NCBI GenBank assembly: GCA_965204375.1
Contig: OZ241986.1
Coordinates: 6,144,001-6,208,000, forward strand
DNA length: 64,000 nucleotides
Direction: 5' to 3'
Source of the DNA: Candidatus Latescibacterota bacterium
GTDB lineage: Bacteria; Latescibacterota; UBA2968
This document shows, in pieces, positions 6,156 to 58,534 of this stretch. The notes under the pieces are model-generated. The model worked only from the letters and a program-made list of their open reading frames with translations. It was not told where the DNA came from and did not search any database. Both the position numbers and the translations under genes were made by a program. The number at the start of each line of letters is the position of its first letter. Position 1 is the first letter of the stretch.

Positions 6156-6183
6156 AAGGAAGTGGAGGCACTGTCTCATCATT

Positions 6184-8516: not shown

Positions 8517-8982
8517 GATTATACACCGTCTCACGGCGTTTCGATGTGATGCCAAAAGCAAAAATTAAGAGGGCGGTTCCCACACTGACACAGGTATCTG
8601 CGAGGTTAAAAACCCACCACCGCGCAGTTCCAATGCCAAAATCGAGAAAATCGATTACGACGCCAAACCGCACGCGGTCGATGATATTGCCAATTGCACC
8701 TCCCAGTACCAGAGTCAAACCAATGGCTGCGAGACGGTCTTCTGGAGAGATCCGCCACAGTAACCCACCAACCACGAGAAGTGCCACACAAGCCAGTAAC
8801 AGATGCAGGTATGGGTTGCCCAATCGGATGCCGAATACTGCACCCGGATTGTGAATGTAGGTCAGTTTAAAAAAAGATCCCAATACCGGTACAGATTCCC
8901 CCAGGGTCATGGTTTGTAACACCCACCATTTGGTGAATTGATCCAGCACCAGTGCCACACCTGTAATCCATAAAAATCTCAC
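8485..8982 (-). CDS. lspA: Lipoprotein signal peptidase II
   Basis: LDQFTK, NPGAVFG, GNIIDR, VIDF, FNLAD. Confidence 0.95.
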   Translation of the reverse strand: MRFLWITGVALVLDQFTKWWVLQTMTLGESVPVLGSFFKLTYIHNPGAVFGIRLGNPYLHLLLACVALLVVGGLLWRISPEDRLAAIGLTLVLGGAIGNIIDRVRFGVVIDFLDFGIGTARWWVFNLADTCVSVGTALLIFAFGITSKRRETVYNRDSSKNSAPT

Positions 8983-8991
8983 AAGTATACC

Positions 8992-9363
8992 TCATGCCGA
9001 TTTGTTTTGTTTTTCTTTACAAGGGACGCAAACTTCTGTGGTCGGTACCGCTTCCAGTCTTTCTCTTGGGATGGGAGCTTTACACACTCGACACCAGCCG
9101 AATTCGCGTTTTTGGATGCGCGTTAAAGCGGCTTCAATTTGGTCCAGATAAGCACCGTCGCGTGCGGCAAATAGAAAAGCCTTTTCGCGTTCCATGGTCG
9201 AATTGCCCAAATCTGGCATGTGATCTGAATACGTCAGGTCGCCCGACGATTCTGCCGAGGTGATCTGCATGGAATGGCTCTGCAACGTGCCCAGGTCTTT
9301 AACGATAGAGGTGCGTTTGGTCTCTAAGAGATTTTTGAAATACTCCAGCTCTTGATCTTCCAT
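8992..9363 (-). CDS. TraR/DksA-family C4 zinc-finger regulator
   Basis: Coiled coil with HMPD, then CRVC...ERLEAVP...CVPC. Confidence 0.88.
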   Translation of the reverse strand: MEDQELEYFKNLLETKRTSIVKDLGTLQSHSMQITSAESSGDLTYSDHMPDLGNSTMEREKAFLFAARDGAYLDQIEAALTRIQKREFGWCRVCKAPIPRERLEAVPTTEVCVPCKEKQNKSA

Positions 9364-9364
9364 T

Positions 9365-9829
9365 TTATTCCTTTCTATTCACAGCTTCCCAAATTTGACG
9401 CGCGTTTTCTTCGATTAGCGCGCGTTGCTCCGGCCAAAAAAACACGGGGAGTGGATCGAGTGGTACCCAGGACATGCTTTCGTGATGCGTCGTATCGGTT
9501 GGCACGGCATCAATCTGCTTGGTCGAATACAAAAAATAATGTGTTATTTTCCACTCTTTCTTGTGGAAATCAAGTCGTTCTTTTGTACCGAGTTTTTCCA
9601 CGAGTTGCAGTTTTGATACCCCAACTTCTTCTTCGATCTCCCGTCGGGCAGCACATTCGATTTTCTCGCCCGCTTCAATGTGCCCTTTGGGCAACACATA
9701 GTCGGTGTGCCCTCTTTCGCAGGCCAGAGCCAGCAATATCTGATTGCCATCCCAACGCACGACTACACCGCCCGCAGCCTGACGTTCTCGCAATCCTTTG
9801 GGACGTATGTACCAGCTATCGTCGATCAT
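9365..9829 (-). CDS. NUDIX hydrolase
   Basis: Nudix box GHIEAGEKIECAARREIEEEVG; likely start MIDDSW at 9829. Confidence 0.88.
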   Translation of the reverse strand: MIDDSWYIRPKGLRERQAAGGVVVRWDGNQILLALACERGHTDYVLPKGHIEAGEKIECAARREIEEEVGVSKLQLVEKLGTKERLDFHKKEWKITHYFLYSTKQIDAVPTDTTHHESMSWVPLDPLPVFFWPEQRALIEENARQIWEAVNRKE

Positions 9830-9839
9830 AAAAGTTATT

Positions 9840-9868
9840 GTAGATGTGGGTTTGAAACCCACATCTAC
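9840..9868. repeat. Perfect 29-bp GTAG-terminated palindrome (REP-like)
   Basis: GTAGATGTGGGTTTGAAACCCACATCTAC. Confidence 0.75.
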
Positions 9869-9869
9869 G

Positions 9870-10745
9870 TCAGGTCCAGTACTTATCGTATAAAAGACTG
9901 AGACGTTCTTTTGCCGCGCTGGAAATAGCATCTGGCGATGTGATAATCGCAAATTGTGCGGCATTGAGACAATCGCAATCCGATGTTCTGGGCAACTGTG
10001 CAGCCAATGTGCATACAATTTGATTTGCGTGCTCGGCATTGGCTTTTAACACAGCGACCACAGCTTCGACCGACACATCTTCTTCGGCTTCATGCCAGCA
10101 ATCGTAATCGGTGCCCATAGCCAGCATCGCATAACACATTTCAGCCTCGCGCGCGAGCTTGGCTTCGGGCAAGGCCGTCATCCCGATCACGGTCGCATTG
10201 ACTTCTCGGCGGTAAAAATGGGACTCTGCTCGCGTGGAGAACTGCGGTCCCTCCATACAGATATACGTTCCGCCATCGTGGGTGGTCACTCCGGAATTTT
10301 TTGCAGCGGCCAGCAGTAAGTCGCGCAATTCACCGCAAAAAGGATCGGCAAAAGCCACATGTCCGGCAATGCCTTCACCGAAAAATGTGCTCGCGCGAAT
10401 GCCGCGGGTGCGATCAAAAAGCTGATCGGGTACCACCATATCACCCGGTTTTATGGATTCCTGCATAATTCCCACAGCACTTATCGCCAACAGATGCGTC
10501 ACGCCCATCTGTTTCATGGCATATATATTGGCGCGATAGGGTACTTCAGAAGGCAGTAGCACATGCCCGCGTCCATGACGGGGCAAAAAATATACCGATT
10601 GATCGCTTATACGCGTTTCGACAACTGCATCTGAGGGCGCGCCAAAAGGTGTGGCAAGGCGATGTTCGGCTACGATTTCCACATCTTCCATGTGATAAAT
10701 ACCCGATCCGCCCATAACACCCAGTCGGACAATCTGTTCAGGCAT
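9870..10745 (-). CDS. mtnP: S-methyl-5'-thioadenosine phosphorylase
   Basis: GGSG, RHGRGH, NIYAM, EGPQFSTRAES, GMT, TDYDCW. Confidence 0.92.
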   Translation of the reverse strand: MPEQIVRLGVMGGSGIYHMEDVEIVAEHRLATPFGAPSDAVVETRISDQSVYFLPRHGRGHVLLPSEVPYRANIYAMKQMGVTHLLAISAVGIMQESIKPGDMVVPDQLFDRTRGIRASTFFGEGIAGHVAFADPFCGELRDLLLAAAKNSGVTTHDGGTYICMEGPQFSTRAESHFYRREVNATVIGMTALPEAKLAREAEMCYAMLAMGTDYDCWHEAEEDVSVEAVVAVLKANAEHANQIVCTLAAQLPRTSDCDCLNAAQFAIITSPDAISSAAKERLSLLYDKYWT

Positions 10746-11259
10746 CTTCCCCTTCCTGATCTGTGGCGTTATCTTCTACTTTCGGGATATCCTCTTGCAC
10801 CACATCGAAGGTTGTCACTTGCAATTGGTCTAAAAAATCAGTCTGAATCTGTACCAGAGCCTTAAAATTGGACAAGAACATATCGCGTTGATTTTGTAAC
10901 TCCACTATCTCTGTGCGGATATCATGCACCTGTGTACGCGCTTTTTCAATGGCCCGATTGCTGCGGATCTCCGCTTCTTTCACAATCAGCCGCGCTTCTT
11001 TGTGCCCATTTTCCTTGACGTCATCAGCCGTTTGTTGGGCAGTCCTGAGCATCTCCTGGAGGGCTTGCTCTATTGACCGATAGTGATGCACTTCTGATTG
11101 CAACGCATTGAGAAGTTCTTTTAGTTCGATATTTTCGGCACCGAGATTTTCGACTTCTGTAGCCAGCATATCGAGAAATGCCTGCACTTCCTCTTGATCA
11201 TAACCGCGAAAAGACTTCTTAAAAATCTGCTTGCGAATATCCAGTGGTGTGATGTTCAC
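10738..11259 (-). CDS. divIVA: DivIVA-domain protein
   Basis: ITPLDIRKQIFKKSFRGYDQEEV N-terminus plus coiled coil. Confidence 0.88.
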   Translation of the reverse strand: MNITPLDIRKQIFKKSFRGYDQEEVQAFLDMLATEVENLGAENIELKELLNALQSEVHHYRSIEQALQEMLRTAQQTADDVKENGHKEARLIVKEAEIRSNRAIEKARTQVHDIRTEIVELQNQRDMFLSNFKALVQIQTDFLDQLQVTTFDVVQEDIPKVEDNATDQEGEDA

Positions 11260-11285
11260 ATTTCCCCTCCCCTAAGGGCTATCGG

Positions 11286-11873
11286 TTATAACTCAAATAC
11301 ACTTTGAATGGCACTCTGAACAACCTGCAGAAGCAAAATTAACAAAATGGGCGACAAATCGAACATGCCCAGTGGAGGAACGATCTGTCGGAAAGGTCCC
11401 ATAATAGGCTCAGTCAAGCTATATAGGGTCCACATAAATCTGCCCCCGCGCACAAAGGGCAACCACGAAAATACGATACGCGCGATAATTAAAACCAGCA
11501 AAACCGCAACGGCGCCATAGAGCAACCATCCGATGATATGCAGAATTTCGCCAGAAGAAATACCGTGTAACAATCCTATAAGTGAACGCAGCACATCGTT
11601 GGTCAACCACTTAAAAAAAAATGCCCCGATCAATGTCGCAATCACCAGAATCAACGGTGCCGCAGCGGTATTTCCAGGCATGTGTTGCGCAATGGGCCAC
11701 ACGAGCGGGTCGGTTATGCGCCGAACATAATATTGAGACCAGCCAAAAGAACTCATACGCACCAAAATAGCGCGTAATAGCAACAACGCCACCATGCCGA
11801 TAACCAATGCAACAAGTATCCAGTCAATGGCTTGTTGGATTAAAATAATCGCCTGAGCAACCACATCAACCAT
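11286..11873 (-). CDS. yggT: YggT-family membrane protein (two repeats)
   Basis: ITDPLVWP and LTEPIMGPFRQIVPPLGMFDLSP. Confidence 0.85.
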   Translation of the reverse strand: MVDVVAQAIILIQQAIDWILVALVIGMVALLLLRAILVRMSSFGWSQYYVRRITDPLVWPIAQHMPGNTAAAPLILVIATLIGAFFFKWLTNDVLRSLIGLLHGISSGEILHIIGWLLYGAVAVLLVLIIARIVFSWLPFVRGGRFMWTLYSLTEPIMGPFRQIVPPLGMFDLSPILLILLLQVVQSAIQSVFEL

Positions 11874-11876
11874 AGT

Positions 11877-12560
11877 TTATACCGCCCGCTGACCGAAAAT
11901 CGCCGTGCCTATGCGAATCATTGTCGCGCCTTCTTCAATTGCGACTTCAAAGTCGCTGGTCATCCCCATAGATAGTGCAGATATATGGGGCTTGTGAATT
12001 GCGATGCGGTCCCTGATTTGTCGCAACAAGACAAAATTTGGTCGCGCTGTTTCGGAATCTGGATCAAATGCGCCAATCGTCATCAGCCCTGCCACGGAAA
12101 CGCCTTGCAGGTCATCGACCTGCCCGATCAGGTCCAATGCCGCGTCGGGCGATACACCGAACTTGGATGCTTCGCCCGATGTATTTACCTGTACTAATAC
12201 GCGAGCCGGGGTGTCTCTCCGCACGGCCCACCGGCTGATTTCTTTCGCCAGGCGCAATGTGTCAACCGAGTGAATCAGGTCGAATAAAGGCAACGCCTGT
12301 TTGACTTTGTTGCGCTGTAAGTGTCCAACCAAATGCCAGGATACCTTGCCGGCCACCTCTGGGACCTTGTGCTGGGCTTCTTGCACGCGACTTTCACCTA
12401 AAATTCGTGTCCCCGCATCTACGACCTGTTGTACGATATCGGCAGGCCAGGTCTTTGTTACAACAATCAATTTAACCGCATCTGCTGATCGCCCGGACCG
12501 CCGGGCAGCCCTGTCAATGCGGTCTTGAATGCGCTTTGTGTTCTCAGCAATTGCCGACAT
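11877..12560 (-). CDS. yggS: PLP homeostasis protein YggS
   Basis: [39 protein letters not shown]. Confidence 0.93.
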
Positions 12561-18454: not shown

Positions 18455-18841
18455 CTACTGGTAAAGATTGATCAAAGCGTCACGCACAAAACGGTCTGGA
18501 AGTGTATTGGTGGTGGAATACTGGGCACGTCTATGATTACCGTTCATGTTGACCATACATAGCGCGCCGCCTTCAGAATCGCATAGTAACAAAACTGATC
18601 GTCCGTATCCACCCGGAGCATCAATGGCAATCTCGCCATCCGGTGTGGGATATACCTCAAAACGACGGGGTAAAATCAAGTACATTTCTCTCAACAAATG
18701 CTTCGCATTTTCCAAAGCCATTTCGGATGGTATCGGGAACCCCTCTTCACGTGCCTCGTCCATTGCTGCGTGAAGATCGTGCAGAGCATCGGTCAGTGTA
18801 TCTACCGTTTTCTTCTCATCCAGGATTTTTCCACATGTCAT
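18455..18841 (-). CDS. Hypothetical protein
   Basis: 128-aa ORF; an in-frame upstream ATG at 18883 is cut off by a TAA, so it may be truncated. Confidence 0.6.
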   Translation of the reverse strand: MTCGKILDEKKTVDTLTDALHDLHAAMDEAREEGFPIPSEMALENAKHLLREMYLILPRRFEVYPTPDGEIAIDAPGGYGRSVLLLCDSEGGALCMVNMNGNHRRAQYSTTNTLPDRFVRDALINLYQ

Positions 18842-18892
18842 GACTGACTTTTTCTCTTTGTAGAATTATTCGGCAAGGTCCATATATTTCAG

Positions 18893-19378
18893 TTATCCCG
18901 TGTCTCTCAGCACTTGTGTCAGAGAATCTCCACACCTGATTCTCCGAATGATTGCCGATCTCCCGCGAAAGCGAACATTGTTGGACCTGTTTCTTAGTTG
19001 TCGCTGCTCATGTTTCGAAAAATTACCAGATGCAACAACCGGGATAAAACTCATACTTGCATCATGTGAAATAATCTGATCGGCGACATTAGCACCACCT
19101 TGAAGTTGTTTTGCAACCTCACTTATATCTACATTCCCCTTTTTTAACTCCATCGGCACGACCCAGTCCTTGTCTGTGTCTCGTTCTTTTGCACCCAAAA
19201 AGATATAATCACATAGTGTCTGATCAGACGGTAAATTTAAATCTTCGCAGTCCAGGTCAATAATAACGCGCTGACCTCTTATTCCAGCCATGGAAACCGT
19301 ACATCCTTCCTTTCTACATCTTTTAACCTGACATTTCTCGGGGATTTCTACTTGTACAGCTTGTACGAATTTACTCAT
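18893..19378 (-). CDS. Putative PD-(D/E)xK nuclease-fold protein
   Basis: LCDYIF...VVPMELK...KQL pattern; 8-bp overlap with the ATPase. Confidence 0.55.
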   Translation of the reverse strand: MSKFVQAVQVEIPEKCQVKRCRKEGCTVSMAGIRGQRVIIDLDCEDLNLPSDQTLCDYIFLGAKERDTDKDWVVPMELKKGNVDISEVAKQLQGGANVADQIISHDASMSFIPVVASGNFSKHEQRQLRNRSNNVRFRGRSAIIRRIRCGDSLTQVLRDTG

Positions 19379-20891
19379 GTTCCCTTTCTATTATGCGGTT
19401 CCCTATCGTAGCCCAGTCGTTGTGGGTACCAATCGCAATATCGTCGTAATCGGACCGGAATCCACCATAATCCACATCAAGGGGTATCTCCTTTACAATT
19501 GATCCCCTGGGGCGTTTTTTAGGCTCGAACAGCCATGTGCCTACCTGGTCGAGACTGAGCGCGTAGTCCGCCCCACCGATCCCTTTTCTGTCAGATTCCG
19601 AAAGTTCCGAGAGGCGCACCAGATTGGCGAGTTCTTCCAGCACCCATTCGCTATGTGTGGTAATTATAATCCGTATGCCAGAACGCACCGCCGCAGCGAG
19701 ATGCCGGATGAATTCGACTTGCATTCCGGGGTGCAGGTGGGATTCGGGTTCTTCGATGATCAGAACTTCTCCAGGTGAGACGACATGGCGAAGGTACAAT
19801 ACGACGGGTGCGAGTTCCGATACCATGGATGAGGTGTTCATTAGAGGCAAGTCTTCTTTCCACCCTGTTGGTTGGTAAGAAAATACGGGATACCCCGTTT
19901 CTGATTTTTCGTTGCGAATTGAACCACTCAGAATTTCTTTTTCAAGGCGTTGGGTGAGATTTTCATTCAGTCTTTTCCTTCTGCTTGACAAATCGCCTAA
20001 TTCAAGGAGTTGTTCGATGAAGTCTGCGACAACGCCAGAGAGCGCCGGTAATGCCCGTGTGGGATGGATACCTCGCGATGCACCCCGGATCAAAGAACCT
20101 ACAACAACCTTGTGCGCGTGCATAACGCCCGTGCGATCTGCAGGGAGATAATGGGCGGGCTGACTTATTGGATTATCGAAGTAAGAAGCGATGTTCGCAG
20201 AAAGGCCACTCATCAATGTAGCCACAAAAGACTTTCTTTCATCACTATCTGTCCATTTTTGTCCGAACCTTATTTTGCCTTCGGATGCGTCTTGGATATA
20301 CTCCTCAAGAGCGTCTTTTCCGATCTGCAAATTGGTATCGGGAATTGAAGTGGTAAAAGCCTCTTTTGCAATGGTGAATTTATACAATGAACTGTGGTTG
20401 TATTCGGCTTCTGGGGGGACCGGTGAGAGAGTGATCTTAGCACTTTCCTTACTTCCGTAGCGAATAAGTCTTCTGGTCTCGTCAATACCAAAGCACCGCA
20501 TTATTTCGTCGGCAAGATCATTGGCGGGAAGAAGATGACTGAACATAGCACGGATCAGCGACGCAATTTCATCTGGTGGAATAGTAGAAGAATTCCCGTT
20601 CACTTGTGAAACGATTTCGTCTATTCTGCCAATCAAACGCGTGATGTCTTGCCCGTGTATCACGGCCTCATCTGGGAAACTCGGACTGCTAATATAGAAA
20701 AAAGGAGGCTCTTTTCCTTCGTGACTATTAAAAAACTTATGCAGTGCGTAGATCAAAACCGCCAAATAAGACTTTCCCGTATTGCTCGGTCCGACAAATA
20801 CAGTAAGCGGGCGCAGTTCGATTTCTGCATTATAAATCGGTCCAAAGTCTTTGACCGACAGCGTAAGATTTTTATCTTGTGATGTCGCCAT
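19371..20891 (-). CDS. ABC-like ATPase (AAA_15/AAA_21 type)
   Basis: Walker A GPSNTGKS, signature TSSMVSE, Walker B IIEEPESHLHP, TTHS. Confidence 0.88.
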   Translation of the reverse strand: MATSQDKNLTLSVKDFGPIYNAEIELRPLTVFVGPSNTGKSYLAVLIYALHKFFNSHEGKEPPFFYISSPSFPDEAVIHGQDITRLIGRIDEIVSQVNGNSSTIPPDEIASLIRAMFSHLLPANDLADEIMRCFGIDETRRLIRYGSKESAKITLSPVPPEAEYNHSSLYKFTIAKEAFTTSIPDTNLQIGKDALEEYIQDASEGKIRFGQKWTDSDERKSFVATLMSGLSANIASYFDNPISQPAHYLPADRTGVMHAHKVVVGSLIRGASRGIHPTRALPALSGVVADFIEQLLELGDLSSRRKRLNENLTQRLEKEILSGSIRNEKSETGYPVFSYQPTGWKEDLPLMNTSSMVSELAPVVLYLRHVVSPGEVLIIEEPESHLHPGMQVEFIRHLAAAVRSGIRIIITTHSEWVLEELANLVRLSELSESDRKGIGGADYALSLDQVGTWLFEPKKRPRGSIVKEIPLDVDYGGFRSDYDDIAIGTHNDWATIGNRIIEREHE

Positions 20892-28414: not shown

Positions 28415-28855
28415 TTATTCGACATCAGAATCTTCTTCATCTATTTTCGACTTGATTTGCTGATCTTCGAAACCCCAAAAATCCGATGGTTTCAGAATTG
28501 GGATATTTTCAAAATATTCGAGATCAAGTAAGTCCTTATCACCTGAAATCAAACAGTCTGCCTGTGCTTGTTGCACACTTAAAAGCACATTATTATCATC
28601 TACATCCCGTGATACGGATGGCAGCGTTCCTTCTAATAGGAAGTGTTCACTAATTTCCAGTATCCAAGATTCGACTTCTCGAATACGATCTGGCGTGTAT
28701 TTAAATCGAGTTGCGAGTTTCTCTGTAACTTCGTCTAAAATCCAGTCAGATATCACCAATTGATGCGTACTTAAACAATAATCAATAAGTTCAGCACAAG
28801 CACCTCGTGTGATTAATCCAGCAATCCAGACATTTGTATCCAGCAAAATTCTCAA
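28415..28855 (-). CDS. PIN-domain toxin (VapC-like)
   Basis: ILLDTNVWI, RDVDDNNVL, ISGDKDLL. Confidence 0.88.
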   Translation of the reverse strand: MRILLDTNVWIAGLITRGACAELIDYCLSTHQLVISDWILDEVTEKLATRFKYTPDRIREVESWILEISEHFLLEGTLPSVSRDVDDNNVLLSVQQAQADCLISGDKDLLDLEYFENIPILKPSDFWGFEDQQIKSKIDEEDSDVE

Positions 28856-29070
28856 GAAATTCTCCTAAATACATCTTCATCTGTATAAACGCCCTGAGCT
28901 TGTGCTTGAGGAATCATCACACGCCTGAGTCGCTGAAATTCCTCTCTTTGAAGATATTGCCGAAGAGCTTCGCTTACCACTTCGTTGTGAGTGATCTGGG
29001 CAGTCTCAACCATTTGGTCCAATCGTGTACGCAACGAACCAGGTAAACTAATCTGAATCGTATCTTTCAT
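28852..29070 (-). CDS. Ribbon-helix-helix antitoxin (CopG-like)
   Basis: TIQISLP...VVSEALRQYL; overlaps the toxin start. Confidence 0.82.
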   Translation of the reverse strand: MKDTIQISLPGSLRTRLDQMVETAQITHNEVVSEALRQYLQREEFQRLRRVMIPQAQAQGVYTDEDVFRRIS

Positions 29071-29190
29071 AACGTCCTCCTAAAAATAAGATACGTCAAT
29101 CTCGACTTTGTGCAACAGCATATTTAACAATCTACTACGTCGTACTTATGCGTGCCAGTCTGTCTATGCTGGGATGCTGTTGTCCTGTAG

Positions 29191-29613
29191 CTACGGCACG
29201 GGGCGGTAAACGTCTTCAAACGCTTCGCGGGTTTTTGCTTCTAACGCGGCGATCATCTCCTCGGGATCCTTGTAATTCTGGATAGCAATATATCTGTGCG
29301 ATTGAAAGCCGGCTGGGTCGTGTTCAAACCCCGTGTCACTCGACACTGTGTACAAAATCGCGCTTCCGTCTGCGAATTGATAGACGTATGTCTTGATACT
29401 ATAACTCTCCGAAATCATATCAGGAAGTCGCGTATTAACGGCACTGATAACGTCGGCCATATTGGGATAGTCAGCGTACTGCTCCATATCGGGAAATCGC
29501 GCAACAACGGCATTGATAACGCTGCTCAACATGTCCTCATTGTTCTGATGATCCTCGCAGATCTGCGAGGCAATCGTGCTACTCGGCTCGCGTGCATCTC
29601 CTTGAATGCTCAT
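29191..29613 (-). CDS. Hypothetical protein with internal duplication
   Basis: RBS AAAGGAG; VINAVVARFPDM / VISAVNTRLPDM repeat. Confidence 0.6.
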   Translation of the reverse strand: MSIQGDAREPSSTIASQICEDHQNNEDMLSSVINAVVARFPDMEQYADYPNMADVISAVNTRLPDMISESYSIKTYVYQFADGSAILYTVSSDTGFEHDPAGFQSHRYIAIQNYKDPEEMIAALEAKTREAFEDVYRPVP

Positions 29614-29717
29614 AGTGCGTCTCCTTTCAGTTGTGTGCATCTTCGGACGCGTTTAGGATATTCATGGTTCTATTCTTTTTGTTATATACAATAGTGCAGA
29701 AGATGGTTTGAATCGCT

Positions 29718-30743
29718 TTATGATTCAGCAACATATCTATGATGCCCGTTCAAAGATAGATACCATTTCGGAGTAATGATAGTAGTAAAAATGCAGACTT
29801 CTGACCAATAGTTCTCAAAATTGAATAACATATCTTTTGTCTGTTTCCTTTTCAATAACTGCGAAAGGAAGGCAGATATATCGTCATAGAGATACAGCCA
29901 TATCTCGTCATATTTATCATTGTTACCCTTGCGTTGTCCTAATTTCTTCATGCACTTTTTCTTTTTTTGGTAGATAGCTGCCTGAATGTGCTTCTTCAGG
30001 AGAGCAAGTTCCTTGTCCACAAGTTCTGCGCCTTCACTAATGTTCCATAAAGGATTTTTGTCAAACAATTTTTCATTAGAAACGGGGACTGTCCCTTGGA
30101 AAGGCAAGCAATATATGCCAAGATCAAATCCTTCATCTATTTCAATACTGTAACCGAAATCTGTCTTTTCGATACTACCCTTGTCAATTCTGATACGACA
30201 ACAATTTCCAGCCCAAAAACGGTTTAATTGCCACAATTCGTAAGTGGTTTCTCCAAGAGTATCCTTTACGATACTAAAATCTAATTTTTCTCCTTGAGAA
30301 AAAAACCTTTCCCTTCGGACTTCTGGCAATTTGAAAATCACCTTAAGTCCTTGTGTAACGATTTTTGGGATGTCGTCTTTTATGGCATTAAATATTTCCC
30401 TGGTGGTATCCATACTGTCTTTAAAATCTTGATATGTTACGTTTATAAAAAACCGTCTTGTTTCACCTTTATTCCGAATATCGCGGGCATATTTTTTTTC
30501 AAACGTTTCTAAACAAGGCTTGATAGTCTTAGCCAAGTTATCTTTAAGCCAAAGATGATCTGTACCATCATCCATTTTTTTTGTAATACGCATGACTTCA
30601 ATGCCGATTTGCTTTCCATTCCACTCAAATTCTAAATCAGGGGGATCATTGCCATTCGTGTTTTGTCTGATGCATACATTCAATAGTTCTTCGAGTTTGT
30701 CCTTCAAAAAAATTTCAGGCTCAAAATTATCATAACTTGACAT
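29718..30743 (-). CDS. AT-rich hypothetical protein, PD-(D/E)xK-like
   Basis: DPPDLEFEWNGKQIGIEV; C-terminal KKKK...YDEIWLYLYD. Confidence 0.55.
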   Translation of the reverse strand: MSSYDNFEPEIFLKDKLEELLNVCIRQNTNGNDPPDLEFEWNGKQIGIEVMRITKKMDDGTDHLWLKDNLAKTIKPCLETFEKKYARDIRNKGETRRFFINVTYQDFKDSMDTTREIFNAIKDDIPKIVTQGLKVIFKLPEVRRERFFSQGEKLDFSIVKDTLGETTYELWQLNRFWAGNCCRIRIDKGSIEKTDFGYSIEIDEGFDLGIYCLPFQGTVPVSNEKLFDKNPLWNISEGAELVDKELALLKKHIQAAIYQKKKKCMKKLGQRKGNNDKYDEIWLYLYDDISAFLSQLLKRKQTKDMLFNFENYWSEVCIFTTIITPKWYLSLNGHHRYVAES

Positions 30744-30809
30744 CGTATTTCCCTGTAAACGGATGAAACATTGTCGGCACTAATTGTATATAATTCTCTT
30801 TGTGCAATA

Positions 30810-32273
30810 CTATGTTGGATCTTCTGGTAATTGTGAGAAGTCAAATTCGTTTACTTCGTCGATGTCTGGTGAAAATGGGGGGATGGCGTGGGGGATATGG
30901 CTGTGTCCACAGCGAGAGATGAGTGCTCGAGCGCGCGCTTGTTGTTCGGCTTGTTTCAACATATCATCGGCAGACCAGCGTGCAAAGATTTTTTCGAGGC
31001 CCGATTGGATCACGTCCTGGTATCGAGGATCATTGGATAGGTCGCGGCGTTCTTCTGGGTCTTCGTCGATGTTGAACAATTGGCAGGAGTCAAATTCGGA
31101 GTAGTAGTTCAATTTCCACGGTCCCGTGCGGAGCATGCACGCGGGCTGGTCGCCGAGTAAGCCGATGTATTCTGCAAAGACTTCATTGGGCCAATCGGAT
31201 GGTGGATCGCCTGTGAGGAATGATGCAAAGCTTTTGCCCGAGACATCGGGCATGGGGTCTGCGCCCGCAATGTCCAGAGCCGTGGGGCCTGCGTCGATGA
31301 GGCTGACGATGGCATCTTCTGTGCGGTTTTCGTGAATATGGCCCGGCCATGAGCAGATCATGGGAATGCCCACAGAGCCTTCGTAAAAACTGCTTTTCCA
31401 CCACATGCCGTGTTCATGGGCCATGTCGCCGTGGTCCGAGGTGTAGATGATGACGGTGTTGTCTGCATTAGAGGAGGATTGTACGGTTTGGATAATCTGA
31501 CCGATGTATCGGTCGAGTTCGGTCGTCAGGCCGTAATAAGCGGCCAATCCGCGACGATTCTGTTCTGGGGTGATGTCTTCAACGCCGCGTCGCTCGCGCC
31601 ATTTTTTCATGGCCGGATGCAGGGCGTTTAAGTATTCGGGCGATTCGGGTTCGAGCGGTGGGATTTGCGCCATGTAATACTCGAAGTCTTCTCTGTCGCA
31701 GATCAGGGGATTGTGCGGGTTCATGTAGCCGACGACGAGGGCATAAGGTCTGTCGCTGTTTTGCCGGTCGGCGATGAATTTGCAGGCTGTTTCGGTGACG
31801 GATTTGTCAAAGTAGCGATAACCTGTTTCGCCATAGCCGGATACTTGGACGCCGTATTTGGTCTGTCCCGTTGTGCGGTTGTATCCAGAGCCGAGAATTT
31901 CTGCGGATAGCCCGCCGCAGTCGGCGTGGATGCGTTTTTCAAAGCCGTGGAATTGGTCGGGGTTTCTAAAGTGCATGCGACCGCATAGTACGGCTTCGTA
32001 TCCCGCCGCGCCATAAGCATGGGCAAATGTGGGGGTGTCAAAAGACAGGCTGCCGCTGTTGTCATAGACGCCCACATCGCTGGGGTACTGCGCGGACATA
32101 AAGCCCGACCGCGAAGGCGCACAGAGGGGATAGGGGCAATACGCATTGCGAAACCGGATTCCACGACGCGCGAGCGTATCTAAATTGGGCGTTTGTACAA
32201 TGGGATTTCCCGCACATCCCATCGCATGGGGATTGTGCTGGTCGGAGATGATGATGATTATGTTGGGAGTCAT
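30810..32273 (-). CDS. Sulfatase (S1, Cys-type)
   Basis: PNIIIIISDQH, CAPSR, GRMH, SDHG; start MTPN at 32273. Confidence 0.92.
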   Translation of the reverse strand: MTPNIIIIISDQHNPHAMGCAGNPIVQTPNLDTLARRGIRFRNAYCPYPLCAPSRSGFMSAQYPSDVGVYDNSGSLSFDTPTFAHAYGAAGYEAVLCGRMHFRNPDQFHGFEKRIHADCGGLSAEILGSGYNRTTGQTKYGVQVSGYGETGYRYFDKSVTETACKFIADRQNSDRPYALVVGYMNPHNPLICDREDFEYYMAQIPPLEPESPEYLNALHPAMKKWRERRGVEDITPEQNRRGLAAYYGLTTELDRYIGQIIQTVQSSSNADNTVIIYTSDHGDMAHEHGMWWKSSFYEGSVGIPMICSWPGHIHENRTEDAIVSLIDAGPTALDIAGADPMPDVSGKSFASFLTGDPPSDWPNEVFAEYIGLLGDQPACMLRTGPWKLNYYSEFDSCQLFNIDEDPEERRDLSNDPRYQDVIQSGLEKIFARWSADDMLKQAEQQARARALISRCGHSHIPHAIPPFSPDIDEVNEFDFSQLPEDPT

Positions 32274-32276
32274 GAT

Positions 32277-32397
32277 GAAGTGTGAGGTGAGAAGTGTGAG
32301 GTGAGAAGTAAAATGCAACCACAGGAATGTAGCCTACAATGATCACAGCTTGCAATCCTTTAATCCTGAAAATCCTTTAATCCTGAAAATCCTGATC
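32277..32397. repeat. GA(A/G)GTNN heptamer x5 (32277-32311) and alternating AATCCTTT/AATCCTGAA units (32354-32395)
   Basis: Direct reading of the intergenic region. Confidence 0.85.
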
Positions 32398-33105
32398 CTA
32401 TTTTCGATCATTCCCGTTATACAGTCCTTCCCCTCGTACGAGCAGGCGTTTGGGGTTGGGAATGTCCATGAGTTCATCGACGCTGTGATAGCCAACCGTC
32501 ATGCTCATGCGCGTGTCGTCGGTGTGGTTTTCGCCTGCGCCGTGGACGACCATGCTGTCGATTGCGAGCATGCCACCTGCGGGCATGGGTACGGGGAGTG
32601 CTTGACCGAGGACATCGCTTGCCCAGTCTGCATCGTGAATAGATGTGGAGACGCCGGGGAAGTGATGCGATCCGGGTACAATGCGGGTGCATCCATTTTC
32701 AAGGGTGGTTTCTTCGAGGTAAAAGATGATGGTGTAGATGTTGCGCGTCCACTGTCTGACATCGCGATGAAGATACGCGCCTTTGTTTTCCTCTGCCGTG
32801 CGTAAGGTGGCGTGGTTGTGGCGGTTGGTGAGGATTTCGATATTGGGTCCCAGAAGCGATTCGAGCGGGTCGAGCGCGTATGGATGTGTGACTGCTTCTC
32901 GAAAGATCGATGCGCGGTCTATAAGATCAGAGATACGCACGGCGCGGCCATTCTTATTGCGTACGATGGGTTCGGCTTCGCGTTCGATGTCTTCCATGAT
33001 CGCGGTCTTCAGGTTTTCAACCATTTCTTCTGGCAAACGGTCTGGAAGACAGAGAAAACCGTTGTTTCGAAAGAGTTGGATTTGTCGCATTGTGAGTGAG
33101 GGCAT
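32398..33105 (-). CDS. PhyH-family Fe(II)/2-oxoglutarate dioxygenase (HxD...H)
   Basis: NGF, LHRD, ENGCTRIVPGSH, VHGAGEN...R. Confidence 0.9.
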   Translation of the reverse strand: MPSLTMRQIQLFRNNGFLCLPDRLPEEMVENLKTAIMEDIEREAEPIVRNKNGRAVRISDLIDRASIFREAVTHPYALDPLESLLGPNIEILTNRHNHATLRTAEENKGAYLHRDVRQWTRNIYTIIFYLEETTLENGCTRIVPGSHHFPGVSTSIHDADWASDVLGQALPVPMPAGGMLAIDSMVVHGAGENHTDDTRMSMTVGYHSVDELMDIPNPKRLLVRGEGLYNGNDRK

Positions 33106-33108
33106 GTC

Positions 33109-33858
33109 CTACTCCTGGGCGGGAAGCGAATAGGGATGTGGATGTCCTGTATAGACTTTTTCGCCGCGTACGAGAACTTTTTCCGGGTCGTCTTTGATCA
33201 CGTCGTGGGCGTCGTGGGCGCGATAGGCAACCGTCATGCTGCGGCGAGAATGATCGGAACAATTTGTGTCAGATCCGTGATAACAGCAGTCGTTAAAGAG
33301 GAGGACACCACCGCGCGGCATGGGGATTGGCACCGCGCGGTAATAGTTGTCGCTGTCGTAAAAATTGTCTCTTTGTTTCTGTGGCCGGCGCGGGTTGAGA
33401 AATGGTCGGTTGTGGCTGCCGGGCACGATGCGTACACAGCCGTTTTCAACGGTTGATTCTTCGAGGTAGATCAAGCCGGTGATGAGCGTGTGGTCATAGG
33501 GTTCTTCACCAGCGTGCCAGGGGACGGGATAAGATCCGGAGGGACGCACCATGACGTGGTTGTGTTTGTTGGTGAGTACTTCGATGTTTGGACCGATGAT
33601 GCCTTCGAGGGCGTTGAGGATGATGGGGTGTGACGCGGCTTCAAAATAGGCGGGGTCTCGTAAGAAAATTTTTGAGAGACGGCGAACATTTTTCGGTTCT
33701 CGATCCCCTTTTTCTTCCCAAACGATGGGTTCGCGCATGTCTGCGATTTGCCGGGAGGTGACCTCGTTTAGACGATCGACAAGGTCGCCGGGCAGGGTTT
33801 CGCGGACTTTGTAAAATCCAGTGGTTTTGAAATACCAGAGGTCTTCTTCTGTGATCAT
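33109..33858 (-). CDS. PhyH-family Fe(II)/2OG enzyme with HxG motif, candidate halogenase
   Basis: WHAG (H115-A-G117), ENGCVRIVPGSH, YHGS (H194), SRR. Confidence 0.85.
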   Translation of the reverse strand: MITEEDLWYFKTTGFYKVRETLPGDLVDRLNEVTSRQIADMREPIVWEEKGDREPKNVRRLSKIFLRDPAYFEAASHPIILNALEGIIGPNIEVLTNKHNHVMVRPSGSYPVPWHAGEEPYDHTLITGLIYLEESTVENGCVRIVPGSHNRPFLNPRRPQKQRDNFYDSDNYYRAVPIPMPRGGVLLFNDCCYHGSDTNCSDHSRRSMTVAYRAHDAHDVIKDDPEKVLVRGEKVYTGHPHPYSLPAQE

Positions 33859-33874
33859 GTTGTGATATCCTTTA

Positions 33875-35203
33875 TTATCTCGGGTCCATTACTCGCCCGA
33901 CAAACAGGGTGGTACTGGTCGCTATGTCTCGAATGAGGAAGATGAATGGCCGATCGACCGCGACCACGATCGACGGTGGGGGCGCAGATTCTATCCCTAT
34001 GACTACGGCGGTAGCTGCTGCGGCTTCTGTGCCCTTTTCATCTACGAGGACAAATGCCTTGTGAAACGCATCAAAAATGTACAGATCTTTTGTTCCATCC
34101 ATGCCCGAGAAGTCCGCTAATTGCGGATCAAAGGCGTCTGACATTCCCATCTTCTTGAGCGTTGCGCCCAGCGGGAATTGGGCTTCAAACTCGAATGAGG
34201 GCATTGTGAGTGCTACGTGCTCAGGTCTCAGGTCTTTCGAAATCTGACTGACGAGTTCGGCGTTTAACGAATTTTCGAATGGATCAAAATTGTCTTTGTC
34301 GGGGAGCAGAATGACCATGGATATTTCACTGCCGTCGTAGGGCAATTCCACGGCTTGATATCCCGTGCCCTTCGCATAGCCGGATAGCTGGGGCTCGGTC
34401 TGTCGCATCATCGGTACTTTGATGCTGTTGCCAGTAAGCAAATGGAAGTCGCCTTCAGCCGTGGCTTTTTCGTCGAAGGGGTAGAGCCACGCCGCGTTGA
34501 AGTAGATGGCATTGGTGAGGACTAATCGGGTCAAGATGTTGATAGCATCGGGTGGGATCAAGTCTTTGATCTTGTCTTCCGTCTGATGGGCGACCCAGTC
34601 GTTGATTGTGAGGCGCGAGTCTTCAGGTGCTTCAATGAAGTTTGCGATCCTCATTCCAGCACCGTAATTTTCCGCCAGTTTGTCCAGAAAGTTCTGCAGG
34701 AAGTCATAGCCCTGTTGGCCCCAGATCGCATTGGTAATGTTCAATCGAAATTCCTTGCCATCCTGGCCACTGCTCCCTTCGCCGCGAGAAGCGAGTTGGA
34801 GATCAAGGGCGTTGAACGCGGGGTGCAACTTGTCCTGGGACAGGGTGAAGTGTAGTGCGTTTGACATCTGGCGTTCGGTTTCGCCTCTGGTACCGGCATA
34901 GGTCATCGCAAGTGCCAACGAGATGCTGTAGGGCGAATAGAACAGGTTCCCACTTTCTGCCTCGCGCAAATTTTGATAGAGGTCGAAGGCGAAGTCGTTG
35001 TTTCCGCGTACCAGGTCTGATAGTTCTGAATCTGTCGCCAGAGGTACGGTTACTCGCGTCTTTGCTGATCGCACTTCTTGTGTCTCAGGGGCCGTGGGGG
35101 GTGATACCTGACCGCATCCGAGTAGTGCGATTAATAGTATTATAGCAGGTAGGTTGGTGAAGCGGGAAAATTCCATTCTATATGGCTTTTGTGTCGTTTT
35201 CAT
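33875..35203 (-). CDS. Serpin, predicted lipoprotein
   Basis: Lipobox LLGC; NLFYSPYSI, NAIYF, VPMM, hinge EKGTEAAAAT, DRPFIFLI. Confidence 0.93.
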   Translation of the reverse strand: MKTTQKPYRMEFSRFTNLPAIILLIALLGCGQVSPPTAPETQEVRSAKTRVTVPLATDSELSDLVRGNNDFAFDLYQNLREAESGNLFYSPYSISLALAMTYAGTRGETERQMSNALHFTLSQDKLHPAFNALDLQLASRGEGSSGQDGKEFRLNITNAIWGQQGYDFLQNFLDKLAENYGAGMRIANFIEAPEDSRLTINDWVAHQTEDKIKDLIPPDAINILTRLVLTNAIYFNAAWLYPFDEKATAEGDFHLLTGNSIKVPMMRQTEPQLSGYAKGTGYQAVELPYDGSEISMVILLPDKDNFDPFENSLNAELVSQISKDLRPEHVALTMPSFEFEAQFPLGATLKKMGMSDAFDPQLADFSGMDGTKDLYIFDAFHKAFVLVDEKGTEAAAATAVVIGIESAPPPSIVVAVDRPFIFLIRDIATSTTLFVGRVMDPR

Positions 35204-35419
35204 TTTAGCCTCCTTGCCCCGGCTATTGTCCCCATGGATGGATACAGAAAAATTATCTTAAATTGCTGTGTAAATCAAGGTTTATTGTTCGCGATGCTCC
35301 AGGGGAACACATTTTGCCCAATCTGGATGCTCTCGTTTTTTCTATGAGTTACGAAAAAAATGTAGTATATTGAAACCATCAGAAGTTCTTTGTTTTTCAT
35401 TTTGTGAAAGGATAGCTGT

Positions 35420-37255
35420 ATGCCCAACGCGTTGCTTGTATATCCAAAGAATCCGGTGACGTTCTGGAGTTTTGATGAGGCTTTGAGGTTGGTTGGAAAG
35501 AAGTCTGCTTTTCCGCCTTTGGGGTTGTTGACGATTGCCGGTATGATGCCCGAGCACTACAGTTTGCGCGTGGTGGATGTGAATGTGCATCCACTGACAG
35601 ATGAAGATCTGGATTGGGCAGATGTTGTGATTACATCGTCGATGATTATTCACTGGCATTCCCTCGAAGAGATTATTGCTCAGTGCAATGTCGCAGGTGT
35701 GCCTGTGCTCAATGGCGGCCCGCTTCCCACGCAGTATTGCGAAGATATTGAGGGAGATGCGGTCTTTTATCTGGGCGAGGCAGAGAATGGCTTTATGGAT
35801 GTGGTCGATCGTTTGGTGGCCGAGCCTTATAAGGGGGGGCGAGAGTACATTGATCGGCGAGGTGAATTTCAAAGTCTCACAACCACACCGCTTCCGAACT
35901 GGGATCTGATCAATTTTGACGATTATACAGTGATGGTGATTCAGATTACAAGGGGTTGTCCCGAAAGTTGCACATTTTGCAATATCCCCGCGCTTTACGG
36001 CAAGATAACGCGTTTGAAAAATAGCAGCCGCGTGGTTCAGGAACTGGACGCGCTTTACGATAGAGGCTGGCGCGGCTCGGTTATGGCGGTTGATGACAAT
36101 TTTGTTGGCAACCGCGAAGAGATTCGAGAAACACTGGAAGAAGAGGTGGTTCCCTGGCAAAGGGAACGCGGGTATCCTTTCCAGCTCTTTACACAGGCCA
36201 GCATTCGCGTGAGTGATGATCCCGCGTTGTTAGAGGCGATGTACCTCGCTGGATTTGATAAAATTTTTGCGGGGATTGAATCGCCAGTGGAAGAAAGCCT
36301 GAAGTTTATGGGCGCGCAAAAGAATTTGCAGGGTGATACGCCTTTGCTGGACAAAGTGAAGATTCTGCAAGACTATGGCATGGAAGTTCAGGCTGGCTTT
36401 ATTATGGGCCTGGATACAGATCCAGATGATATTGCCGATCGCATGATTGCGTTTATCAGAGAAGCGGGTATTCCGGTGGCTATGGTGGGGGTTTTGGGCG
36501 TGCTGCGCGACACGCCCGACTTCAAGCGCTACAAGCGGTTGGGTCGCCTGCGTGAAGACGTAAAATATACGGGTGATTCGGGTATTTTCAGTCGGGAGTT
36601 GAGTTATGTGCCTATCATTGATCCCGACGAACTGCTGGCGCGCCATCGCAAGGTTCTCGAAACGCTGAACAGTCCAGAGATTTTCTTTGAACGCTGCCGC
36701 ACGCATTATGCACATCGCGCGCGCAGGCCGATTCCGTCAATGCCAATTGGTTGGACGGAACTCAGGGCTGGATTGCGCTCTTTTTGGCACCAGGGAGTGG
36801 TCGGGACTTATCGGTGGACGTTCTGGAAGTTTATGGCTCACATGCTCTTGCACCATCCCCGCGATTTTGGCGATGGCATACGCATGTCCATTCATGGCCG
36901 TCATTTGATTCTCACCACGCGCGATGCTCTACAGGTCGATGAGGTGCAGACATTTTTGGATGAGGCGCTGGATCATCTGAAGCGTTTTAGCGAGGGATAT
37001 AAAGAGGTGAGTGTCGGTGATTACGCGAGCAAGTTGATGCACGCCCTGCACGGGCGGTTTGATCATTTCCAAGACGATTATCGCACTTTACAACACAATG
37101 CTGAGGTGATGTTGAAGGCGGCTCAGGAATACTGCGAGTTGATCCGCGAAGAATTTCGCCACCAGGTTGCAGAACCTCTCGAGCGTTTCCAACAAGAGAT
37201 TGAAGCCATTCTCGACTCATATCCCACACAAAGCAGTTTGCAACCTGCTCGGTAG
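35420..37255 (+). CDS. B12-binding radical SAM protein (HpnP/DUF4070-like)
   Basis: PPLGLLTIA, GGP, RGCPESCTFC, VDDNF, GIES. Confidence 0.88.
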   Translation: MPNALLVYPKNPVTFWSFDEALRLVGKKSAFPPLGLLTIAGMMPEHYSLRVVDVNVHPLTDEDLDWADVVITSSMIIHWHSLEEIIAQCNVAGVPVLNGGPLPTQYCEDIEGDAVFYLGEAENGFMDVVDRLVAEPYKGGREYIDRRGEFQSLTTTPLPNWDLINFDDYTVMVIQITRGCPESCTFCNIPALYGKITRLKNSSRVVQELDALYDRGWRGSVMAVDDNFVGNREEIRETLEEEVVPWQRERGYPFQLFTQASIRVSDDPALLEAMYLAGFDKIFAGIESPVEESLKFMGAQKNLQGDTPLLDKVKILQDYGMEVQAGFIMGLDTDPDDIADRMIAFIREAGIPVAMVGVLGVLRDTPDFKRYKRLGRLREDVKYTGDSGIFSRELSYVPIIDPDELLARHRKVLETLNSPEIFFERCRTHYAHRARRPIPSMPIGWTELRAGLRSFWHQGVVGTYRWTFWKFMAHMLLHHPRDFGDGIRMSIHGRHLILTTRDALQVDEVQTFLDEALDHLKRFSEGYKEVSVGDYASKLMHALHGRFDHFQDDYRTLQHNAEVMLKAAQEYCELIREEFRHQVAEPLERFQQEIEAILDSYPTQSSLQPAR

Positions 37256-37275
37256 GACGCGCTGCGATACAAAAC

Positions 37276-37349
37276 AAAAGCCCGGTATCATAAAAGATAT
37301 CGGGCTTTTATTTTTTTAACCACAAAGCCGGAGACACTGTCTTCGGCTT
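37276..37349. terminator. Two hairpins between the convergent radical SAM gene and trxA
   Basis: AAAAGCCCG...CGGGCTTTTATTTTTTT (37276-37317) and AAGCCGGAGACA-C-TGTCTTCGGCTT (37325-37349). Confidence 0.75.
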
Positions 37350-37356
37350 CTCAGTT

Positions 37357-37683
37357 TTAAGCGAGCACAGCTTTGAGTTTGTCTTCTATCGCGCTTTTGG
37401 GAACAGCGCCAATAAGCTGATCTGCCTGTTTGCCGTCTTTAAAGATGAGCAGTGTAGGGATGCTGCGAATGCCAAACCCCTGTGCTGTCTGCTGGGCGTG
37501 ATCCACATCGACTTTGCAGATTTTAACGCGACCGTCGTATTCGCGAGCGAGTTCTTCAATGCTGGGGGCAATCATGCGGCACGGACCGCACCACGTTGCC
37601 CAGAAATCCACGAGCACCGGAAGATCGGAATCGACAACTTCTGTTTGGAAATTTTCATCTGTAACATTCAATGGACTTCCCAC
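37357..37683 (-). CDS. trxA: Thioredoxin
   Basis: DFWATWCGPC, SIPT; GTG start after AAAGGAG. Confidence 0.95.
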   Translation of the reverse strand: MGSPLNVTDENFQTEVVDSDLPVLVDFWATWCGPCRMIAPSIEELAREYDGRVKICKVDVDHAQQTAQGFGIRSIPTLLIFKDGKQADQLIGAVPKSAIEDKLKAVLA

Positions 37684-56620: not shown

Positions 56621-56863
56621 ATGCTAACTACATATATCCAATCAGCTATGAAACACGCAAGATACGAGATTCTCGATGACCAAACGTTTTATGGAGAAAT
56701 TGTGGGCTTTCAAGGCGTGTATGCCAATGCGGATACTTTAGAAATGTGTCGCGAGGAATTGCAGGCCGTGCTCGAAGGTTGGATCATTCTCGGCTTGAGG
56801 ATGGGACATCCTCTTCCGGAAGTGGATGGGGTGCGTTTGGATGCTGTATTGGAGTCCGTGTAA
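56621..56863 (+). CDS. hicB: HicB-family antitoxin (short)
   Basis: YGEIVGFQGVYANADTLEMCREEL...GHPLP. Confidence 0.82.
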   Translation: MLTTYIQSAMKHARYEILDDQTFYGEIVGFQGVYANADTLEMCREELQAVLEGWIILGLRMGHPLPEVDGVRLDAVLESV

Positions 56864-57081
56864 TGCCCAAATTGGGGCCAATTAGTCGCCGCAATCTAAT
56901 TCGCTATTTGAGACAACTGGGATTTGAAGGTCCGTATCCTGGAGGCAAGCATCATTATATGATTCGAGAAACAACACGTCTTGCCATTCCCAATCCGCAT
57001 CGAGGTGATATCGATCGTGGGCTTTTGCTCAGGATTTTGCAGCAAGCGGATATCAGTCGGGCAATTTGGGAAAGCCTGTAG
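56863..57081 (+). CDS. hicA: HicA-family toxin
   Basis: MPKLGPISRR, LGFEG, GGKH, IPNPH, ILQQA; TAATG overlap. Confidence 0.85.
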   Translation: MPKLGPISRRNLIRYLRQLGFEGPYPGGKHHYMIRETTRLAIPNPHRGDIDRGLLLRILQQADISRAIWESL

Positions 57082-57127
57082 CACGTCAATAAAATTTTCA
57101 ATAAAAACAAATTTGAAAGGACACTGA

Positions 57128-58525: not shown

Positions 58526-58534
58526 GGAGGCAGG

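Follow-up and report, generated by a model that had tools for sequence, protein, structure and literature searches.

The PhyH-family Fe(II)/2-oxoglutarate (2OG) oxygenases PhyH, EctD, PHYHD1, SnoK/SnoN, EvdO1/EvdO2 and GriE all carry HxD, the carboxylate-bearing part of the iron-binding facial triad HxD/E...H. Replacement of this Asp by Gly or Ala is established to open a halide site in SyrB2, WelO5 and BesD-type enzymes, and HXG/A is given as a halogenase signature, also for genome mining, in PMC12871659 and PMC11186838. AspH is described in PMC10947486 as a natural HXG...H hydroxylase that has no carboxylate ligand; PMC6817910 reports that no halogenation was observed with chloride, and PMC10915816 describes a water in place of this ligand, kept there by Asp721 in the second sphere, mutation of which cuts activity. 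Here we analyze a PhyH-family gene (gene A) that has HxG followed by Glu, and the adjacent gene B, in a 64,000-nucleotide stretch of a Candidatus Latescibacterota bacterium genome (contig OZ241986.1, positions 6,144,001-6,208,000; "the window"). An earlier note, made from the letters of the window alone, correctly stated the halide-site precedent and proposed that A and B form a halogenase/hydroxylase pair. We found that A belongs to a conserved Asp-less clade of PhyH proteins, within an uncharacterized module that also includes B and a B12-binding radical SAM (S-adenosylmethionine; rSAM) gene. The proposal is partly supported, and a halogenase role for A is possible and unproven.

A tandem pair of PhyH-family genes

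The two genes of the pair are:

33109-33858, minus strand: gene A, PhyH-family Fe(II)/2OG oxygenase of the W-H-x-G-E clade (open reading frame (ORF), 249 aa)
32398-33105, minus strand: gene B, canonical PhyH-family paralogue (ORF, 235 aa)

The spacer between them is 3 bp (33106-33108). Both products match the Pfam PhyH model (PF05721; 83.5 bits for A and 88.7 for B, cutoff 22), and no other Pfam model matched A at E <=0.01. By BLASTP the proteins are 36% identical across 242 columns (E 1e-48), so their resemblance is not due to chance and, judging from this alignment, they are true paralogues. A Shine-Dalgarno-like AAGGA lies 9 nt upstream of the ATG of A. For B, an AGGAG is found within the final codons of A, 6 nt upstream of the B start, and A and B therefore appear to be translationally coupled in the lineage of the window.

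The paralogy and close spacing had been recognized in the earlier note, as had the position of the YLEE Tyr, which in both translations is indeed 16 residues past the first His. The same note regarded the shared motif LTN(R/K)HNH as unusual. It is present in both proteins (LTNKHNH in A, LTNRHNH in B), but it does not set the pair apart. We collected genomic loci of A from GTDB species representatives and retained the best 80 of 106 matches (L001-L080). NKHNH occurs in 79 of these 80 loci and N[RK]HNH in most B-like representatives, and by this comparison N(K/R)HNH is a signature of the whole subfamily.

The altered iron-binding motif of gene A

The residues of interest were located from the codons:

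33505-33516, minus strand: H115-A116-G117-E118 of A, remodelled iron-binding motif (codons CAC GCT GGT GAA)
33514-33516, minus strand: H115 of A (codon CAC)
33508-33510, minus strand: G117 of A (codon GGT)
33505-33507, minus strand: E118 of A (codon GAA)
33277-33279, minus strand: H194 codon, predicted distal iron ligand of A (invariant in family alignment A1)
33244-33246, minus strand: R205 codon, putative 2OG C5-carboxylate-binding Arg of A, in R-R-S (invariant in A1)
32761-32769, minus strand: H113-R114-D115 of B (codons)
32767-32769, minus strand: H113 of B (codon read-out)
32761-32763, minus strand: D115 of B (codon GAT)

The facial triad is absent from A (H115-A-G117, H194) and present in B, whose remaining site residues are H188 and R199. 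In the alignment of the A family (A1, 59 sequences) H115, H194 and R205 are all invariant. In that of the B family (A2, 33 sequences) the invariant residues are H113, R114, D115 and R199, and H188 is at least 90% conserved. By alignment, R205 of A corresponds to the Arg of the PhyH-family R-x-S motif, and R205-R-S207 is invariant or nearly so in A1. The contrast drawn in the earlier note, of one protein with HxD and another with HxG that keeps the distal His and the 2OG Arg, is thus borne out, and on these alignments A is a variant PhyH member that lacks the HxD/E carboxylate.

The Gly is a conserved feature. Among 120 homologues of A retrieved from a set of 5.8 billion proteins, Gly117 is found in 116, His115 in 118 and Glu118 in 115. 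The four without Gly are two B-like outgroups (31-36% identity), one aberrant sequence and one fragment. W-H-x-G-E occurs in 79 of the 80 genomic loci, the remaining locus being truncated. The possibility raised earlier, that close homologues would all have Asp, is therefore not what we found. The orthologues span the full length of the protein, and in the best segment their identity to A is 56-99% (at least 59% in all but one). In the 79 loci the Gly is encoded by GGC (36), GGT (21), GGA (11) and GGG (11). That all four codons are used shows that the amino acid itself is under selection and excludes a base error.

A single HxG clade within a canonical family

An exhaustive HMMER search returned 2112 relatives at E <=0.001, of which the 150 best were listed. 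Among these 150, the full-length proteins that were aligned mostly read N-R-H-N-H ... H-R-D-[V/I]-x-Q-W, like B. A tree of 51 rows unites the HxG proteins in a single clade (support of 100 in the Shimodaira-Hasegawa-like approximate likelihood ratio test) nested within the HRD[V/I] family, and B sits in a 25-row HRD clade with support of 97. Asp gave way to Gly, and the adjoining residue became Glu, on one and the same stem branch of this tree. We also tallied motifs in 124 aligned sequences, comprising 122 representatives and distant homologues plus A and B of the window. HxGE was found in 15 and HxGA in two; after HxD the next residue was V or I in 53 sequences and E in two. Given these counts, the Glu was gained along with the Gly, at a site that is hydrophobic in canonical relatives.

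Nested in the HxGE clade is a subclade with W-H-R-G-A, to which the proteins P0111, P0266, P0267 and P0121 belong. It comprises four clusters, 63-86% identical to the query P0111. In its members the Asp and the adjacent Glu are both gone, and the two His and R-R-S are kept. From its position the subclade lost the Glu secondarily; an ancestral intermediate was considered and rejected, as the tree places the subclade inside the HxGE clade. Its proteins offer a natural comparison for judging what E118 does.

By phylum, the 80 loci include 52 from Latescibacterota, 15 from Gemmatimonadota, three from Poribacteria, two each from Planctomycetota and Acidobacteriota and one from Rhodothermota. On the tree and these counts, the HxG proteins are one well-supported and widespread clade, mainly in metagenome-assembled genomes (MAGs) of Latescibacterota and Gemmatimonadota. 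In the portions of the literature returned by our search, no description of the W-H-x-G-E clade turned up.

Comparison with structures and profiles

The AlphaFold2 model of A is confident, with a predicted local distance difference test score (pLDDT) of 89.5 and a predicted template modelling score (pTM) of 0.88. In this model H115 lies at the end of a strand and G117-E118 begin the next loop. When the model was compared with the PDB using Foldseek, human PhyH ranked first (2a1x; E 1.3e-15, template modelling (TM) score 0.72), followed by EvdO1, SnoN/K, proline hydroxylase H11, GriE and EctD; SyrB2 was at rank 49 (TM 0.62). By these matches A has the double-stranded beta-helix fold of solved PhyH-family proteins. 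A similar order was obtained when profile A1 was compared with PDB sequences (PhyH 67.8 bits, EctD 63, SyrB2 29.1 and CytC3 18.4). No WelO5, BesD or AdaV chain was present among 60 of the 63 PDB matches to this profile at E <=10. Against the NCBIfam chlorinating-enzyme model TIGR01762, A scored 28.6 bits (cutoff 226.3), with residues 124-152 alone aligned. These profile scores place A outside the SyrB2 family defined by TIGR01762 and closer to the hydroxylases PhyH and EctD.

The NCBIfam methylphosphonate hydroxylase model gave 33 bits with A (cutoff 500) and was not used as a functional lead. In the ESM Atlas, A matched generic PhyH clusters only. A complex of A and B, predicted with alignments A1 and A2, had a median score of 0.09, compared with a mark of 0.32, which counts neither for nor against a heterodimer.

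A conserved module with a divergent rSAM gene

Two further genes flank the pair in the window:

35420-37255, plus strand, divergent from A: B12-binding radical SAM protein with DUF4070, conserved third module member (Pfam B12-binding, Radical_SAM and DUF4070)
30810-32318, minus strand: Cys-type sulfatase with CAPSR at residue 66, peripheral neighbour (Pfam Sulfatase and SGSH_C)

The divergent rSAM gene is found upstream of A in 36 of the 73 loci with at least 2.3 kb of upstream sequence. B lies directly 3' of A in 34 of the 74 loci with at least 900 bp downstream, and further on in three. For the 70 loci that have both flanks, B and the rSAM gene occur together in 34, neither occurs in 33, B alone in two and the rSAM gene alone in one. 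Because this co-occurrence is nearly all-or-none, the rSAM gene and A-B constitute a conserved unit, and the conserved partner of A-B is the rSAM gene, not the sulfatase. The pairing of A with B is thus conserved in part of the loci, and many others have neither B nor the rSAM gene.

The rSAM protein reached the cutoff of no NCBIfam model (ApyD, 62.7 bits with a cutoff of 750; PhpK family, 57 with a cutoff of 600), and neither match was used as a lead. Its single PDB match, 9ccb, was weak and uninformative (32.9 bits). The module pairs an O2-sensitive B12 rSAM enzyme divergently with two O2-dependent oxygenases. One idea, which is hypothetical, is that the rSAM enzyme and A-B could be anoxic and oxic routes to one transformation. 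In L029 the B orthologue (8747-9586), and in L032 a Gfo/Idh/MocA gene (9461-10492), each appear split into two ORFs, which could be frameshifts or assembly errors.

The earlier note had pointed to the sulfatase downstream and to the lack of nonribosomal peptide synthetase (NRPS) or polyketide synthase (PKS) genes, and had missed the rSAM gene. Both statements are true in the window, where none of the 56 ORFs scanned with Pfam has an NRPS or PKS domain, but the sulfatase is peripheral. An orthologue with at least 60% identity occurs in 19 of the 80 loci, 17 of which are among the 34 with adjacent B. The sulfatase of the window scored 322 bits against the choline-sulfatase model, below the cutoff of 433. 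Further along the window (56746-60028, plus strand), an ORF with a HicA-toxin domain precedes two tandem sulfatases that carry SGSH_C domains. As the genome is rich in sulfatases, the location of one beside B may be partly coincidental.

Genomic settings of gene A

In a tree of the A proteins, the module-type loci comprise two groups, and the A genes without B and the rSAM gene (solo A) fall into other groups, each with its own synteny. We judged neighbourhood contents by Pfam in 17 loci. Around the module are Gfo/Idh/MocA oxidoreductases, xylose-isomerase-like TIM barrels, more sulfatases, an amidohydrolase and an M20 peptidase; the module of the window itself sits among housekeeping genes. 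One solo-A group has genes for a GH2 glycosidase with HAD, RGL11-like, SDR and HpcH aldolase proteins as neighbours. Other solo-A settings include an M19 dipeptidase with overlapping stop and start, an enolase-superfamily protein and a second PhyH protein.

The first of these groups is exemplified by a conserved array in L020, L021 and L023 (about 4300-12300) of a HAD hydrolase with a ClpX zinc finger, A and the GH2 glycosidase, in this order. L020 and L023 additionally have a UPF0047 gene ahead of the HAD gene and an RGL11-like gene between the HAD gene and A, and 3' of the GH2 gene are LysO and SDR genes in L020 and L023, with an HpcH aldolase gene as well in L020. From its gene content, the array looks like a glycan or sugar-acid utilization locus. 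In L037 (7977-9976), L041 (8001-9976) and their relatives, A overlaps the start of the M19 membrane-dipeptidase gene by 4 bp, and in L037 this gene is followed by an isochorismatase-like gene and a class IV aminotransferase. For the M19-linked group, the neighbours hint at an amine- or peptide-like substrate. Overall, as far as Pfam labels indicate, the neighbourhoods of A that were examined look like small-molecule or sugar catabolism, not natural-product biosynthesis.

Interpretation

We place first, and hold tentatively, the reading that A is active as a two-His oxygenase, with E118 either supporting an iron-bound water or itself binding the iron. Gene structure, motif conservation, clade monophyly and synteny are established by the data above; the role of E118, the type of reaction and the substrate we infer. 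The iron site was remodelled once, in the ancestor of the clade, with the triad Asp becoming Gly and the next residue becoming Glu (W-H-x-G-E). With both His ligands and the 2OG-binding Arg kept, A would be a catalytically competent PhyH-family Fe(II)/2OG oxygenase, coupled to its canonical HxD paralogue B in a module with the divergent B12-binding rSAM enzyme, in settings suggestive of the breakdown of sulfated or sugar-like small molecules. The two-His iron center would most likely support ordinary oxygen-rebound chemistry (hydroxylation or a related oxidation), and the third facial position might be filled by a water hydrogen-bonded to the E118 carboxylate, comparable to Asp721 in AspH, or directly by E118. 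A compensating carboxylate fits better than a halide pocket because the Glu arose with the Gly at a site that is hydrophobic in canonical paralogues. We rank the two-His oxygenase first because of this coupled Glu, the hydroxylase-like affinities of A and the catabolic settings.

Several points weigh against this interpretation. The caution in the earlier note that E118 might supply a carboxylate agrees with its near-invariance and its origin on the same branch as G117, but the W-H-R-G-A subclade lacks it, and E118 is therefore dispensable in at least some members. We know of no precedent for a Glu three residues after the His as an iron ligand in this fold. The argument from context is soft, as BesD-type amino-acid halogenases also occur outside NRPS/PKS clusters. 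AspH aside, the natural carboxylate-less Fe/2OG lineages named in the sources consulted are all halogenases, namely SyrB2, CytC3, WelO5 and AmbO5 and the AdaV, BesD and DAH types cited in PMC11186838, and HxG is described in PMC12871659 as an accepted signature for halogenase mining.

The strongest rival, which we consider unlikely, makes A a free-standing Fe(II)/2OG halogenase. Chloride or bromide would bind at the vacated Asp site, the substrate radical would capture the halogen, and B would hydroxylate the same or the next intermediate. The strict HxG across the clade, with both His and the 2OG Arg kept, is what such an enzyme would have. The W-H-R-G-A subclade indicates that a site without an adjacent carboxylate is stable, and the signature described in the two mining-related sources named above points in the same direction. 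Many of the loci are from marine-type MAG lineages, and halide would be abundant in such settings. However, a near-invariant Glu that arose with G117 lies beside the would-be halide site, where a neighbouring carboxylate should disfavor anion binding. A also falls outside TIGR01762, its profile scores with SyrB2 and CytC3 are below those with hydroxylases, the PDB matches considered included no WelO5, BesD or AdaV chain, and neither the loci examined nor the window offers a biosynthetic context. HxG is necessary for halogenation, but the behaviour of AspH, as reported in PMC6817910, indicates that it is insufficient by itself. Of the halogenase/hydroxylase pair proposed in the earlier note, the canonical HxD of B and the genuine HxG of A stand, and the assignment of A as the halogenase is weakened by the AspH precedent, E118, the low TIGR01762 score and the catabolic contexts.

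In its fuller form, the halogenase proposal would make the W-H-x-G-E clade an independently evolved, free-standing Fe(II)/2OG halogenase lineage in uncultivated Latescibacterota, Gemmatimonadota and Poribacteria. It would act on a small polar (sugar- or amine-like) substrate outside NRPS/PKS clusters and have a hydroxylase paralogue and a B12-radical-SAM enzyme as partners. We give this version the same low standing. Halogenation by A might be cryptic, activating a carbon for later chemistry.

Less probable still is that an anionic group of the substrate itself (sulfate, carboxylate or phosphonate) fills the open site, with iron binding and O2 activation gated by substrate. Sulfatases and sugar-acid or amino-acid enzymes recur near A, and PMC10915816 describes one crystallographic mode of AspH in which the iron is ligated by the substrate carboxylate. 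That mode was, however, computed to be non-productive in the same source, and the acidic loop after the motif of A (G-E-E-P-Y-D) would argue against an anionic group at this position.

We regard as very improbable the idea that A is a non-catalytic auxiliary subunit that dimerizes with B, as TlxI does with TlxJ. A and B are adjacent paralogues that appear translationally coupled, and TlxI/TlxJ is a precedent from the same superfamily in the account of PMC12141560; chains of 7vbq match the profiles of both A and B. Yet TlxI is described there as lacking the 2OG Arg, whereas H115, H194 and R205 of A are invariant, and A occurs without B in 33 of the 70 loci with both flanks.

Finally, a sequencing or assembly error of GGT for GAT, or a decaying pseudogene, has a negligible chance: the codons do differ by one base, as the earlier note cautioned, but the occurrence of four Gly codons across 79 independent genomes led us to reject the error, and the orthologues are full-length and the ORF of A is intact with a Shine-Dalgarno sequence.

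Either of the two leading readings of A would be informative. As a halogenase, A would add a lineage of such enzymes from uncultured marine phyla that acts on a new class of substrate and might be of use in biocatalysis. As a hydroxylase, it would be a naturally occurring two-His oxygenase whose carboxylate has been relocated, to our knowledge the first PhyH-type equivalent of AspH in bacteria, and would caution concretely against assigning halogenases on the basis of HxG alone. In addition, the tight linkage of the rSAM gene to two oxygenases defines an uncharacterized three-gene module.

Other features of the window

One further gene lies within the module in the window:

33875-35203, minus strand: serpin with a lipoprotein-like N-terminus (...LLIALLGCGQ), outside the conserved module (Pfam Serpin, 387.8 bits)

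The serpin gene is located between the rSAM gene and A in L001-L013 alone, the 13 closest of the 80 loci. Given this restriction, it is a recent, lineage-specific insertion into the module.

The spacer between B and the sulfatase includes perfect tandem repeats, one of 14 bp with 2.4 copies (32277-32309) and one of 17 bp with 2.4 copies (32354-32393). Owing to the 14-bp repeat, the sulfatase ORF has a repetitive extension at its N-terminus; its TTG start at 32318 is therefore probably spurious, and translation probably begins at the ATG at 32273. On the 3' side of the sulfatase (28415-30743, minus strand) are a PIN-domain protein (28415-28855) and two ORFs that have no Pfam match (29191-29640, 149 aa; 29718-30743, 341 aa), which together may be a small accessory island. 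Elsewhere, an AAA_15/AAA_21 (AbiEii-like) ATPase (19371-20891, minus strand) adjoins two small ORFs, also with no Pfam match (18455-19378), and this region could be a defense or toxin-antitoxin-type element.

A scan of 30500-37500 found six promoter-like sites (6.8 expected) and five terminator-like sites (8.0 expected), and gave no usable operon boundaries.

Comparison with known systems

The PhyH family (PhyH, EctD, PHYHD1, SnoK/SnoN, EvdO1/EvdO2 and GriE) shares with A the Pfam domain, the fold, the best sequence and profile matches, the distal His and R-x-S; the A clade differs in having HxG and then Glu. Within this family, W-H-Q-D-E of EvdO2 aligns to W-H-A-G-E of A, and E118 is therefore the residue just after the position of the Asp ligand.

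AspH resembles A in its HxG, and E118, present in 115 of the 120 homologues, is a candidate for a role like that of Asp721. The two are of different 2OG subfamilies, and A is not in the Asp/Asn hydroxylase family of Pfam, so A may work like AspH but is not a member of its family. The compensating Asp of AspH is near the distal His, whereas the Glu of A is next to the Gly, and AspH, which has a TPR domain, modifies proteins in eukaryotes.

For FIH, we take Asp201 to be followed by Glu202, in which case the D201G variant would also read H-x-G-E, with the Glu not becoming a ligand. This variant is of an engineered JmjC-type enzyme, not a natural clade; its HxG site is described in PMC6817910 and PMC10947486 as that of a viable hydroxylase with two-His coordination.

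TlxI/TlxJ, as described in PMC12141560, are adjacent paralogous genes of which one has a defective cofactor site. TlxI is without the 2OG Arg, whereas A keeps R205 and often occurs without B.

The carrier-protein-dependent halogenases of the SyrB2/CytC3 type have a PhyH-like fold and His-x-Ala/Gly...His, as in A. They have Ala at the vacated position, whereas A has Gly-Glu and no carrier protein or NRPS nearby. WelO5/AmbO5, the BesD family, AdaV-type nucleotide halogenases and plant DAH are presented in PMC11186838 as stand-alone HxG enzymes that act on free small molecules. None of these was among 60 of the 63 PDB matches to profile A1 at E <=10, and if A is a halogenase, it would be of an independent lineage.

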